A stretch of 41,357 nucleotides of DNA. Source: Candidatus Gastranaerophilales bacterium. Its GTDB lineage: Bacteria; Cyanobacteriota; Vampirovibrionia; Gastranaerophilales; Gastranaerophilaceae. The position numbers and the translations under genes were made by a program. Positions 14,284-17,114 of the stretch are shown one piece after another. Each line of letters begins with the position of its first letter. Position 1 is the first letter of the stretch. The notes under the pieces were generated by a model. That model saw nothing but the letters and a program-made list of their open reading frames with translations, did not search any database and was not told the origin of the DNA. The DNA lies in contig CANQLA010000001.1 of NCBI GenBank assembly GCA_947624605.1, positions 1-41,357 on the forward strand. The letters run 5' to 3'.

Positions 14284-15216
14284 ATGGGTTTAGCTGCAAC
14301 ACAAGCAAGGTATCTGGGTCTTACAGCAAGAAAAACAAATATAGAATTTGAAGGACAACAGGTCAACCAAGCAAGAACAGCTTTGGCAAATCAAAGTTCG
14401 ACTTTGTATCAAAAACTATATTCTATGACTGTGCCAACACCTCCTAATGTTGTAGATTACTATAAAACTGAATATACATACTCGGCAGGAGGAACAAAAT
14501 ATACTGTTAATTCATATAGCCCTATTGAATACGGTTCTAATATATATGATATAAATGTTTCTTATACAGGTTTTGTAGATATAGGATTAAAAGCTTTTGC
14601 AACAGGAAATATAACCAAAAACTCCGATGGTACATATACAGTCAAAATGGCAGGAGGTTTGTCCACATATACTTTGGATCCGGCTACAGCTGTTTTAGAT
14701 CCGGCTCTGGATGATGCATCAGGAATAAAAAACGGTTATTATATGAACTATATTGATCAAGATACCGGTATAAAATATTTTTTAAATAAAGAATGGCTCG
14801 AACAACAAGATTATCCTTATAATGATACCGTTCAAAGATACTATAAAAATAGCGAATCAAAAGAAATTACGGAAGATCATAAAAACTGTACTTTAGCATT
14901 TGATTCTACGGGAACAATTTCCAGAATAATAGATCCTTCAATCAGTGATTCGGAAATATCTGTTTCGGCAACCGAAATTCAAGATACTGATGCATACCAG
15001 GAAGCTATGAATAAGTATACAAAAGATAAAGATGTATATGAAAAAGAACTGGCAGAAATCAATACACAAACAGCTGACGTTCAGGCAGAAGACCGCTCTT
15101 TGGAATTAAGACTGAGACAATTGGATACAGAACAGCAAGCACTACAAACAGAACTGGATTCTCTCAAATCCGTGCTTGATAAAAATATAGAAAAAGTATT
15201 TAAAGTATTTGCATAA
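14284..15216 (+). CDS. uncharacterised protein, paralogue A (conserved N/C helices, variable core)
   Basis: The 310-aa ORF has a GGAGG RBS 6 nt upstream. Its N-terminus MGLAATQARYLGLTARKTNIEFEGQQVNQARTALAN and its coiled-coil C-terminus are shared with the 16251-17114 product. No signal peptide. Confidence 0.85.
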   Translation: MGLAATQARYLGLTARKTNIEFEGQQVNQARTALANQSSTLYQKLYSMTVPTPPNVVDYYKTEYTYSAGGTKYTVNSYSPIEYGSNIYDINVSYTGFVDIGLKAFATGNITKNSDGTYTVKMAGGLSTYTLDPATAVLDPALDDASGIKNGYYMNYIDQDTGIKYFLNKEWLEQQDYPYNDTVQRYYKNSESKEITEDHKNCTLAFDSTGTISRIIDPSISDSEISVSATEIQDTDAYQEAMNKYTKDKDVYEKELAEINTQTADVQAEDRSLELRLRQLDTEQQALQTELDSLKSVLDKNIEKVFKVFA

Positions 15217-15229
15217 AAAGGAGTAAAAA

Positions 15230-16051
15230 ATGTCTTATAAAAATGACAGTATGCTGGTAATTTCAAACAAGTACGGAAAAGCAAGCGGTGATGCAAAAGC
15301 AATGCTGTTTCAAACCTACGACCAATTAAGAGATATAGTAGTGAGTGGTTCTGCAACAGACGGTGCAGGATTTGGTACTGCGGGAAGTTGGCTTTGGAAT
15401 ATCGCAAGGTTCATTGCTCCAAGTTCTTTTATGTCTGTTATGGGCGGTAATACAGCAATAAATATTCCTGGAACTTCTTATTGGACACCTATGGAAGGAG
15501 GAACATCTACAGTTGACGGAGGAAATGCAGCTTTTGGTATAGGAAACTTAGGCTCCTATCCGGGATTTCCAAGCGGTGCAGCCTCAATAATATCAGGATT
15601 TGGATCTTCTAAAATCAGTTATACTACAGGTGCTGCCGCTTCTATAGCATCAGCTTCCGATTTAGCAGGTATTGCCGGCATAAATGCCGCTGCATATACT
15701 ACCGGTGTAGCTGCCGGATACGGTTACGCAAATAGTCTTGTTATTCCGGCTGCCGGTATTGTATCCGGCATCGGTGGTATATTACAAGCTATATCTCCTT
15801 ATGCAGGCGTATACGGCATTGCAGGCGAAATTCTCGGCAACCTCATGCAAGGTACCGGTAGTGCTGCTCTTGCTGCTTATCAAAATGTTACAGGTAAAAT
15901 TCAGGCAAATGCCGATACTATTTTGGAAAATAAAGTTAAAAACATCGAAACAGTCGTTAAAATGATTGACGTCCAAAATGACGTCGTTAAAAAAATGCTT
16001 AAAGACGAAATGGAAGGTGCAAGTAAATCTGTCGATAATATTACTTCGTAA
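15230..16051 (+). CDS. Gly/Ala/Ser-rich glycine-zipper protein with C-terminal amphipathic helix
   Basis: The 273-aa ORF has an AAGGAG RBS and starts 13 nt after paralogue A, so the two are probably co-transcribed. The centre is dominated by G/A/S/I with GxxxG-type runs (GIVSGIGGIL, GVYGIAGEILG). The tail is charged and helical. Confidence 0.8.
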   Translation: MSYKNDSMLVISNKYGKASGDAKAMLFQTYDQLRDIVVSGSATDGAGFGTAGSWLWNIARFIAPSSFMSVMGGNTAINIPGTSYWTPMEGGTSTVDGGNAAFGIGNLGSYPGFPSGAASIISGFGSSKISYTTGAAASIASASDLAGIAGINAAAYTTGVAAGYGYANSLVIPAAGIVSGIGGILQAISPYAGVYGIAGEILGNLMQGTGSAALAAYQNVTGKIQANADTILENKVKNIETVVKMIDVQNDVVKKMLKDEMEGASKSVDNITS

Positions 16052-16072
16052 TGTAAATATTTGTAACAAATT
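16052..16072 (+). repeat. 21-nt motif TGTAAATATTTGTAACAAATT (copy 1)
   Basis: It starts immediately after the stop at 16051 and is 20/21 identical to the reverse complement of 20282-20302. It contains two TGTAA cores 10 nt apart. Confidence 0.7.
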
Positions 16073-16150
16073 CGTCGCAAAGTTTTTACTTTTGCGTTTA
16101 CCTTAGAGTTCTTTTTCATGAAAATAGTTATTTTTAGTTAATTTTAATAT

Positions 16151-16167
16151 GTTACAAAAAGTTTACA
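16151..16167 (-). repeat. inverted, slightly degenerate copy of the TGTAA-N-TTGTAAC motif
   Basis: The plus strand reads GTTACAAAAAGTTTACA, and its reverse complement is TGTAAACTTTTTGTAAC (one extra nt in the spacer). It forms an inverted pair with 16052-16068. Confidence 0.55.
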
Positions 16168-16183
16168 AATGCATTCTGAAAAT

Positions 16184-16210
16184 TAAAGTTTTTAAAAATT
16201 TTCCCGATAA
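16184..16210 (+). promoter_or_regulatory. near-consensus sigma-28 (FliA/SigD-type) promoter
   Basis: TAAAGTTT (16184-16191), an 11-nt spacer, then CCCGATAA (16203-16210), versus the consensus TAAAGTTT-N11-GCCGATAA. The -10 ends 40 nt upstream of the ATG at 16251. Confidence 0.6.
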
Positions 16211-16250
16211 AATATTTGTAAGGTAAGAAAATAAGTAAGGAGCGCTAACA

Positions 16251-17114
16251 ATGGGTTTAGCAGCATCACAGGCAAGATTTTTAGGATTGACAGCAAGAAA
16301 GTCAAATACAGAATATGAAGGTCAACAAGTCAACCAACAACGTACTGCTTTAGCTAACGAATCAGCAAGCTTATACAGCCAACTTACTAATTTGACTGTA
16401 CCTACTCCTCCTGATATTATTAACTTCTATAATACTGAATATTCTTTCGTTACAGGCGGAAAAACTTATACAATGACTACTCTTCCTATCAGAGGTGATA
16501 ACGGTTATACCGTTTCTGTTTCTCATATGGAAGAACTTCCCGGTTATAAAACAGTTACAGGTGACGGTTTGGATTTAACAGGTGCTGATACTACTACTTT
16601 AGCAAGTCTTTCTACTTTAGCAAAACATATTGAAAATGAAAGAAAAGATGGCGAACAAAGCCTTCCTTCCGATACTGCCGTTAAAGTCTTCTCACATAAC
16701 AATAATACTTATTACAACATCGGTGATAAATATTATATGTATACTCCTCAAACACAAAATGTTACCAGCACTTATACCGGTGTTCAATTAACTTACAATC
16801 AAGCAGGCGATTTCGACAGCATTAAAATCTCTGAACTTACCGGTGATAATGCTATAAGTGTTTCAACAAACCAAGTTGCTGATGATGATGCTTATGATTT
16901 AGCTATGAACGCTTATAACAAAGAATACAGTGAATATGAAAAAACAATGGCTCAAATTAATGCTAAAACTGAAGTTCTTCAACAACAAGATAAAACTCTT
17001 GAACTTCGTTTAAATCAGTTAGATACTGAACAAAATGCTATTTCAACCGAAATGGACGCTGTTCAAAAAGTTATCGAAAAGAACGTTGAATCTACTTTCA
17101 AAACTTTCGGTTAA
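16251..17114 (+). CDS. uncharacterised protein, paralogue B (conserved N/C helices, variable core)
   Basis: The 287-aa ORF has an AAGGAG RBS 8 nt upstream. Its N-terminus is MGLAASQARFLGLTARKSNTEYEGQQVNQQRTALAN and its C-terminus is LELRLNQLDTEQNAISTEMDAVQKVIEKNVESTFKTFG. It has no Cys, no Trp and no signal peptide. Confidence 0.85.
   Translation: MGLAASQARFLGLTARKSNTEYEGQQVNQQRTALANESASLYSQLTNLTVPTPPDIINFYNTEYSFVTGGKTYTMTTLPIRGDNGYTVSVSHMEELPGYKTVTGDGLDLTGADTTTLASLSTLAKHIENERKDGEQSLPSDTAVKVFSHNNNTYYNIGDKYYMYTPQTQNVTSTYTGVQLTYNQAGDFDSIKISELTGDNAISVSTNQVADDDAYDLAMNAYNKEYSEYEKTMAQINAKTEVLQQQDKTLELRLNQLDTEQNAISTEMDAVQKVIEKNVESTFKTFG

Follow-up and report, generated by a model that had tools for sequence, protein, structure and literature searches.

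The A-M-B locus and its terminal-hairpin proteins

The genes discussed here lie in 41,357 nucleotides (nt) of DNA from a Candidatus Gastranaerophilales bacterium (GenBank assembly GCA_947624605.1, contig CANQLA010000001.1, positions 1 to 41,357 of the forward strand), and this whole stretch is referred to as the window. Three open reading frames (ORFs) on the + strand, designated A, M and B, had been described in a sequence-only reading of the same DNA; all three are present where it had placed them, and the Gly/Ala-rich gene that it saw bracketed by two paralogues is M (Table 1). A and B belong to a superfamily, named F in this report, whose members share a terminal helical hairpin and have no match among characterized families. 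Many F genes are preceded by a sigma-28 (FliA/SigD)-type promoter, and their products are candidates for export by the flagellar type III apparatus.

Table 1. Features of the A-M-B locus, in window coordinates
Feature	Position	Strand	Description
Sigma-70-like promoter of the A-M operon	14131..14161	+	TTGATT, ~17 nt, TATATAAAT; invariant block
AU-rich hairpin in the A leader	14236..14268	+	Predicted; adjoins the Shine-Dalgarno sequence at 14273-14277
Shine-Dalgarno sequence of A	14273-14277	+	GGAGG
Gene A	14284..15216	+	310-amino-acid (aa) terminal-hairpin (F family) protein with a beta-rich core; from ORF list and AlphaFold2 (AF2) model
Shine-Dalgarno sequence of M	15220-15223	+	GGAG
Gene M	15230..16051	+	273-aa Gly/Ala/Ser-rich conserved partner; between A and B
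Terminator-like hairpin after M	16076..16096	+	Weak; from consensus scan
Sigma-28 (FliA/SigD)-type promoter of B	16184..16210	+	TAAAGTTT, 11 nt, CCCGATAA
Shine-Dalgarno sequence of B	16237-16242	+	AAGGAG
Gene B	16251..17114	+	287-aa F-family paralogue of A; no Cys, no Trp
Intrinsic-terminator-like hairpin and T-run after B	17167..17195	+	8-bp stem with 4 GC pairs, then TTTTTTGTTTT

BLASTP aligns the products of A and B from end to end at 38% identity (E 2e-65), with a marked division along the chain: residues 1-56 are 71% identical and residues 234-310 are 52% identical, whereas the core (residues 57-233) retains only 13%. The shared ends and unalignable middle noticed in the sequence-only reading are thus borne out. 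The same division is seen in an alignment of 36 F members, where mean identity is 78% in the N-terminal segment, 19% in the core (153-243 aa long) and 64% in the C-terminal segment. The invariant or near-invariant columns of this alignment read MG.AA.QAR..LTARK.N.E..GQQ.NQ.R near the N-terminus, followed by VPTPP and by LEL.L.QLDTE...TE...KN.E..FK.F. An AF2 model of A built on the family alignment, with a predicted local distance difference test score (pLDDT) of 87.8, consists of a helix at residues 2-47, a beta-rich core at 60-233 that includes two strands of ~27 residues, and a 75-residue helix at 235-309. The plan proposed for the two proteins, conserved helical ends on either side of a hypervariable insert, is therefore modelled confidently, the termini are helical rather than disordered, and the pattern is general to the F family.

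The 1,199 homologues of A are without exception unannotated. Neither A nor B contains a hydrophobic signal-like segment (maximum 19-residue Kyte-Doolittle mean 0.78 in A and 0.61 in B), and hydropathy and sequence revealed no Sec or Tat signal, lipobox or prepilin leader in either; the N-terminus, MGLAA[TS]QAR, is polar and helical. On this point, and on the absence of Cys and Trp from B (0 and 0 residues), the sequence-only reading was correct.

Size, range and locus organization of the F family

An exhaustive HMMER search with a profile of the hairpin alone retrieved 3,694 representatives (50% identity clusters) at E <=1e-3, and 1,997 at E <=1e-10. These proteins are 102-861 aa long, and the profile almost always runs from residue 1 to the last residue. 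F is therefore defined by its terminal helical hairpin, the turn of which holds an insert of 0 to ~750 aa. A genome scan using one genome per GTDB species confirmed at least 545 F loci, essentially all in Gastranaerophilales/Melainabacteria bins, and the few odd-titled bins that carry F loci are probably mislabelled. As far as record names show, F is restricted to Gastranaerophilales; the names of cluster members gave no tie to named flagellated or non-flagellated strains.

Gene order was compared in 84 loci (80 from the genome scan, three from contig look-ups, and the window) that together hold 108 F genes. An F gene is directly followed by M in 53 of the 84 loci, so that the A-then-M order is conserved among relatives rather than peculiar to the window, a lack of conservation being one way in which the sequence-only reading might have failed. 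The layouts seen are F-M, F-M-F (the window type) and F-F-M, and lone F genes also occur. Since the flanking genes vary between loci, the F module is self-contained. Recurrent neighbour families (c18, c19, c23, c38, c4 and others) are either without Pfam annotation or housekeeping, and conserved export machinery was not found among them. At the edge of one locus (L063 20652-21014) an ORF with a divergent F-like N-terminus (MGLSASQARLLSVTQR...) has a sigma-28-type motif 26 nt upstream and ends at the locus boundary, which hints at more distant F branches.

Searches for known relatives

Comparison of A, M and B with Pfam, NCBIfam and PHROGs returned only sub-threshold coiled-coil noise, the PHROGs matches being to coiled-coil or tape-measure proteins at E values above 1e-3. 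The flagellin families PF00669 and PF00700 were not detected by hmmscan in A or B at E <=1 or in 64 F members at E <=10, and the Pfam families of rod/hook proteins, needle subunits (SctF) and EspA were likewise not detected in 64 F members at E <=10. Sequence-profile searches of the PDB with the full-length protein and with the hairpin yielded only TcB/TcC toxin (YD-repeat-like) noise, tektin and GCN4. When F or its hairpin was aligned by hhalign with FliC/FlgL, FlgK, FliD and rod/hook profiles, including the clade's own FlgK, FlgL and FlgG, the probability did not exceed 0.5%, and with a combination of E. coli FliC, FlgL and Gastranaerophilales FlgL, a thin target profile that makes for a weak negative, it was 0.2-0.3%.

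A Foldseek search of the A model against the PDB gave nothing at E <1e-3 and no credible match to an axial protein. The best match was a chain of the Salmonella cap filament (E 0.019, probability 0.23, template modelling score (TM) 0.16); elongated helix-plus-beta models of this kind align poorly on a global scale. No characterized family thus emerged from library, profile or fold searches. The suggestion that A and B belong to an undescribed family without the flagellin PF00669/PF00700 signatures has withstood these comparisons.

Sigma-28-type promoters upstream of F genes

The two promoter boxes before B, at 16184-16191 (TAAAGTTT) and 16203-16210 (CCCGATAA), lie 40 nt before the ATG and agree at 15 of 16 positions with the published sigma-28 (FliA) consensus, TAAAGTTT-n11-GCCGATAA (PMC2859248). 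This is the sole such site in the 41-kb window. Both boxes are invariant before B in four F-M-F relatives, with a spacer that varies.

The association is not confined to B. In a de novo k-mer comparison of upstream regions, TAAAGTT was present before 48% of F genes vs 4.5% of other genes (p 9e-34), and TGCCGAT and GTCGAT were likewise enriched. With the 1,274 other genes of the same loci as background, the composite motif TAAAG-N15-18-[CT]CGA was found before 58 of the 108 F genes vs 17 others (p 2e-56), and 56 of the 58 strings are distinct. Allowing [CT]CG[AT] at the -10 box raises the count, within 200 nt upstream, to 67 F genes (62%) against 21 of the background genes (1.6%, p 4e-66); shuffled sequences give ~1%, and 64 of 83 loci have at least one F gene of this kind. 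The motif has a median position of 41 nt before the start codon (interquartile range 38-46) and the consensus cTAAAGTTT ... tG[C/T]CGATAA. Over the window as a whole the relaxed motif is no more frequent than expected (7 found vs 6.6); the signal lies only in its position upstream of F genes. By their promoter class, F genes would belong to the flagellar late (sigma-28/FliA) regulon, with FliA as the putative recognizing factor.

Two further observations concern the same upstream regions and their surroundings. TGTAACA or TGTTAC-type elements occur 30-60 nt upstream of the sigma-28 -35 box of many F genes, including at ~16140-16160 in the window (ATGTTACAAAAAGTTTACAAA); GTAACA is present in 45% of F upstream regions vs 7% of the background, and these elements may be a binding site of an additional regulator. 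An unannotated family of 272-275 aa (c37), located near F-F-M modules (L015 5920-6738, L026 5962-6786, L037 4570-5397), also has a well-placed sigma-28-type motif and may belong to this regulon too.

Gene A is arranged differently. No sigma-28 motif precedes it in any of four F-M-F relatives, and the block TTGATT ... TATATAAAT upstream of A does not differ between the window and the three F-M-F relatives closest to it (L004, L005, L012), while the flanks of the block vary; its match to consensus suggests a promoter. M starts 13 nt past the A stop codon, so A and M are probably co-transcribed. Separate regulation of A and B, as proposed in the sequence-only reading, is therefore supported by a sigma-70-like promoter for the one and a sigma-28-type promoter for the other. 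That reading had also given each copy a strong Shine-Dalgarno sequence and a long private leader: the Shine-Dalgarno sequences are there, as is a leader of ~120 nt for A, but the leader of B is short because its promoter is only ~40 nt from the ATG, despite long intergenic regions (227 and 199 nt). The hairpin predicted in the A leader has nine pairs conserved in four relatives, one with a compensatory AU/GC change, and a z-score of -1.6; because it is energetically weak, it can be regarded as no more than a possible element of translational control. Downstream of M, the T-run is poor, so that the terminator there is only suggestive.

Flagellar genes in the clade

To find flagellar genes, every ORF of the fetched loci was compared by phmmer with the flagellar proteins of E. 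coli K-12. In one locus (L070) a lone F gene with a sigma-28-type promoter converges on flgL-flgK, which is followed by small ORFs at the flgN/flgM positions and by flgI-flgH-flgG-flgF. In another (L076) fliI (E 6e-108) and the F-M module are divergently oriented. Elsewhere, fliE-fliF lie ~5-7 kb downstream of the F module (L061), and flhB and a 220-aa FliA-like sigma factor (E 1e-5 against E. coli FliA) lie 9 kb upstream of F (L071). The clade thus has flagellar machinery and a FliA-like sigma factor. The resemblance to multi-flagellin loci that had been suspected from the window is closer than was guessed, in that F carries a late-class promoter and sometimes adjoins flgK/flgL or fliI.

The literature on the clade describes a varied flagellar inventory. 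Flagellated Melainabacteria have canonical flagellins, and MEL.A1 has no filament, cap, junction or L/P-ring genes (PMC3787301). Full flagellar sets were present in only three of nine early Gastranaerophilales genomes (PMC4040986). More recently, in a 2026 preprint, ~25% of Gastranaerophilales were reported to have complete sets, with ~75% keeping flhB, fliI, flgG and other genes, possibly for secretion (10.64898/2026.04.24.720558). The export of non-flagellar proteins by flagellar type III secretion systems (T3SSs) is known (PMC2764114, PMC5223770, PMC7688988).

The partner M and the small proteins c3 and mini

The M protein contains 14% Gly, 14% Ala and 11% Ser. It is far better conserved than F: its 769 homologues are 60-90% identical, and many of its Gly, Trp, Tyr and Phe positions are invariant. 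It has a single hydrophobic, glycine-zipper-like stretch at ~160-195. M has no match in Pfam, NCBIfam, PHROGs or PDB sequences, and its AF2 model (pLDDT 37.5) is unusable. A possible relationship to the F hairpin, through the C-terminal helix, is given a probability of 27% by hhalign over 40 columns. Guesses for its role include a co-exported cap, an adaptor or a membrane-active partner of F.

About 30 of the 84 loci have a helical ORF of ~90 aa (c3) downstream of M, followed by a protein of 107 aa (mini), as in L002 (12155-12795) and L007-L018; neither is present in the window and neither matches Pfam. Mini corresponds to the F hairpin without a core, its helices being in register with the F termini, including the turn proline and the KN[IV]E..FK ending. 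The TAAAG-N15-18-[CT]CG[AT] motif precedes 46% of c3 genes (13 of 28 loci) and 0% of mini genes. Alignment of M, c3 and mini with flagellar chaperone and regulator profiles by hhalign gave no match; the highest value in the flagellar set was that of mini with FliD, 4.3% over a coiled-coil stretch of 45 columns.

Core domains and phage-adjacent relatives

Among the 59 F members of at least 400 aa, recognizable insert domains were found in two. The core of one (P0440) contains a GLUG motif and Peptidase_M26_N, the N-terminal region of IgA1 protease, and that of the other (P0444) contains three dockerin-type calcium-binding repeats. No cytoplasmic-type domain was found in the 59 large cores.

Giant-core relatives also occur next to phage genes. 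In eleven IMG/VR loci (L084-L094, 31-37% G+C), F-like genes for proteins of 545-773 aa with the same termini directly follow a phage head module of major head protein, small terminase, portal and large terminase (for example L091 10001-12322 and L087 8375-10099); one of these loci has a Mu-type transposase and baseplate genes as well. The same sigma-28-type promoter and upstream TGTAACA elements precede them. The host genes downstream differ, being rsmI-like, secA-like or tRNA-Ser by N-terminal sequence and ARAGORN, which suggests prophage cargo. These genes are probably carried as cargo by prophages of Gastranaerophilales phages. The 773-aa relative has no PHROG match, and a large F-like protein found no counterpart among GenBank phages by tblastn. 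Foldseek of A against BFVD viral models retrieved PA14-domain, tail and adhesin proteins (E 5e-5 to 1e-3); the likeness is not relied on here, as TM is only 0.1-0.24.

Other features of the window

The window has a G+C content of ~32%, and its nearest protein relatives are labelled Candidatus Gastranaerophilales or Gastranaerophilaceae, that is, gut Melainabacteria/Vampirovibrionia. Outside the A-M-B locus it is ordinary chromosome, with a resistance-nodulation-division (RND) efflux operon, tetratricopeptide-repeat proteins, YebC, HisG, a murC-murB-ddl-ftsQ cluster, NAD synthase and transporters. Genes for flagella, pili or secretion were not found in the 41 kb, scans for Rfam families and tRNAs gave no match, and phage genes are absent from the window and from most loci. 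Type I secretion had been considered on account of the RND/OEP/HlyD genes upstream, and was rejected: the operon, which other loci do not conserve, encodes an AcrB-type pump.

Several neighbouring genes may be recorded. A 164-aa ORF divergent from A (13562-14056, - strand) is Cys-rich, has a hydrophobic N-terminal segment and no Pfam match, and is not a recurring neighbour at other loci. At 31297-32100 (+ strand) lies a gene for a 267-aa ankyrin-repeat protein (Ank_2 E 4e-62); such proteins are uncommon in free-living bacteria, and this one may bear on host interaction. Nine unrelated neighbour gene families start with M[KRQ]IN[SP]..., including window ORF 18984-20228 (- strand), in which MQINSISSVN is internal, and families c24, c32, c38 and c63 elsewhere; further examples are MKINSINNQY and MRINPLTKYQ. 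These starts loosely recall flagellin N-termini (MRINHN...) and could reflect a shared export or recognition signal, or chance.

A possible role in flagellar type III export

There is about an even chance, in our estimate, that the flagellar type III export system takes F proteins as late substrates and that their variable core is displayed outside the cell. This rests on the late promoter, the absence of a Sec, Tat or lipoprotein signal, the conservation of the termini to the chain ends and the extracellular-type core domains. The first ~47 and last ~75 residues are two long helices paired in a hairpin, and its turn, which contains a proline, receives a domain that is hypervariable, mostly beta-rich and of any size. 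In the proposed scheme, F genes would be switched on with the flagellar late (sigma-28/FliA) regulon, and the proteins would be exported by the flagellar type III apparatus so that the core ends up outside the cell. There they would serve either as subunits of a flagellum-associated or flagellum-replacing fibre, or as secreted or adhesive proteins. In the window, the sigma-70-like promoter would serve A and M, and B would have a sigma-28 promoter of its own, an arrangement that recalls differentially regulated multi-flagellin loci.

A number of points weigh against this proposal. The sigma-28 motif is missing from gene A and ~38% of F genes, its class is assigned from a published consensus, and it could be read by a different group-3 sigma factor. 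Flagellar linkage is seen in only 4-5 of the 84 loci, by rough estimate not above chance, and the flagellar neighbours are therefore taken as context only. At the protein level, the conserved helices of ~47 and ~75 aa are far shorter than the D0/D1 segments of flagellin, the fold search returned no credible axial protein, extracellular-type domains were recognized in just 2 of the 59 large cores, and the modelling of M failed. Export, extracellular location and any polymerisation are inferred, as is recognition of the motif by FliA.

Other explanations account for parts of the same evidence. F proteins might instead stay in the cytoplasm and act in motility and chemotaxis, as regulators or coiled-coil components of the apparatus, co-regulated by sigma-28 like motor, chemoreceptor or chaperone genes and not exported, although this appears quite improbable. 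The sigma-28 regulon also covers cytoplasmic proteins; the lack of a signal peptide and the restriction of weak profile matches to generic coiled coils would suit such a role, and M, c3 and mini could partner F in a cytoplasmic complex. However, a core of such extreme variability in sequence and size (0 to ~750 aa) would be unusual for a cytoplasmic structural or regulatory protein, as would the several F paralogues per locus and the dockerin and GLUG/IgA-protease-type domains of some cores. A surface or secreted location reached by a non-flagellar route, such as an unrecognized dedicated system or type I secretion with a C-terminal signal, with the promoter merely coupling F to the motile or late state, is given a similarly small chance. 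It would explain why the F-M(-c3-mini) module is self-contained and usually sits amid unrelated housekeeping genes, and why the extreme C-terminus of F is as strongly conserved as the N-terminus; the glycine-zipper-like stretch of M could then act in the membrane. Yet the module has no conserved neighbour of the ABC transporter, membrane-fusion pair or other export ATPase kind, other loci do not conserve the RND pump found upstream in the window, and the flagellar apparatus is the only Sec-independent one documented as widely retained in the order.

True homology with flagellin or hook-associated proteins, followed by extreme divergence, is very unlikely, despite the common design, promoter class and missing signal peptide, the lone F gene that adjoins flgL (a frequent place of flagellin genes), and the top PDB fold match to a flagellar cap-filament chain, itself insignificant. 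Against it stand the absence of PF00669, PF00700 or any axial family at E <=10, the hhalign values of no more than 0.5% against FliC/FlgL, FlgK, FliD and rod/hook profiles, PDB profile searches that reach generic coiled coils only, the low probability (0.23) and TM (0.16) of that fold match, and the presence of canonical flagellins in flagellated Melainabacteria (PMC3787301). Least probable of all is an origin in phages or a function in phage-host conflict (tail-fibre-like, receptor-masking or an anti-phage decoy), with the chromosomal copies as domesticated prophage cargo. The eleven IMG/VR loci with F-like genes of 545-773 aa right after the head module, and the viral fold matches to PA14-domain, tail and adhesin proteins, point in this direction, but those fold matches have TM of 0.1-0.24 only, no PHROG or GenBank phage match was obtained, the phage-adjacent copies bear the host-type sigma-28 promoter, and the window and most loci are free of phage genes.

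Within the proposal of flagellar export, polymerisation of F into a fibre, the filament candidate of the sequence-only reading, is plausible but conjectural. A more elaborate version is judged unlikely: the terminal hairpins of F would polymerise into a fibre other than flagellin, or F would make up an adhesin array, and assembly would fall to the flagellar type III export apparatus, including the reduced basal-body sets, lacking flagellin, of about three quarters of Gastranaerophilales; M would be a cap, anchor or membrane-active partner, c3 and mini chaperone-like or minor subunits, and giant-core F genes on temperate phages lysogenic-conversion cargo. If it were true, a lineage widespread in the human gut would possess a new class of surface organelle derived from the flagellum.

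The proposal bears on several wider questions. Most Gastranaerophilales genomes keep partial flagellar machinery without a full flagellum, and a family of several thousand clusters that is linked to a late promoter and is flagellin-like yet unrelated is an obvious candidate cargo for the retained machinery. If the hypervariable cores are exposed at the surface, the lineage would probably meet host and phages mainly through them, as an antigenic or adhesive interface, and one that is invisible to TLR5-centred thinking on flagellin. F also offers a second clean example of a helical hairpin that accepts an insert of any size, which is useful for the study of cargo-domain tolerance in exported or self-assembling proteins.

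Comparison with known systems

Injectisome subunits of the SctF/EspA type resemble the 107-aa mini protein at the level of fold class, with a helix, a Pro-containing turn and a second helix, a similar size, and termini conserved to the last residue. They differ from F in that no needle or EspA Pfam match was obtained at E <=10 and no injectisome genes were seen. The Cia/FlaC/Fed-type proteins of Campylobacter jejuni are another point of reference. Many of them depend on sigma-28, and in FlaC the core is reduced while the termini are still flagellin-like. Like F, they lack a Sec signal; they carry an N-terminal export sequence and exit via the flagellar apparatus (PMC2764114). Despite this likeness, they are unrelated to F, which is a far larger family with a fixed hairpin-plus-insert design and a partner, M, and whose export is only proposed. 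Systems in which a flagellar T3SS is retained or reduced provide a third parallel: non-motile Lysobacter enzymogenes OH11 has kept its flagellar T3SS for secretion (PMC7688988), which may be compared with the ~75% of Gastranaerophilales that have partial sets. An F-like substrate family has not been described for such systems.

A further resemblance is to flagellin (FliC/Hag; PF00669, PF00700). As in F, the terminal helices of flagellin are conserved to the chain ends, the insert between them is hypervariable, may be absent or hundreds of residues long and can include additional domains, a signal peptide is lacking, and several differently regulated paralogues per genome and sigma-28 promoters are found. 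Unlike F, flagellin has conserved helices of roughly 140 and 90 aa, as opposed to ~47 and ~75 aa, and the two families share no sequence or profile similarity and no credible fold match. Canonical flagellins moreover coexist in flagellated members of the clade, and flagellin polymerises, whereas polymerisation of F is only conjectured. F thus resembles flagellin in design and regulation and not in demonstrable ancestry; it is an analogue, not a member of the flagellin family, and is novel both as a family and as a regulatory association.

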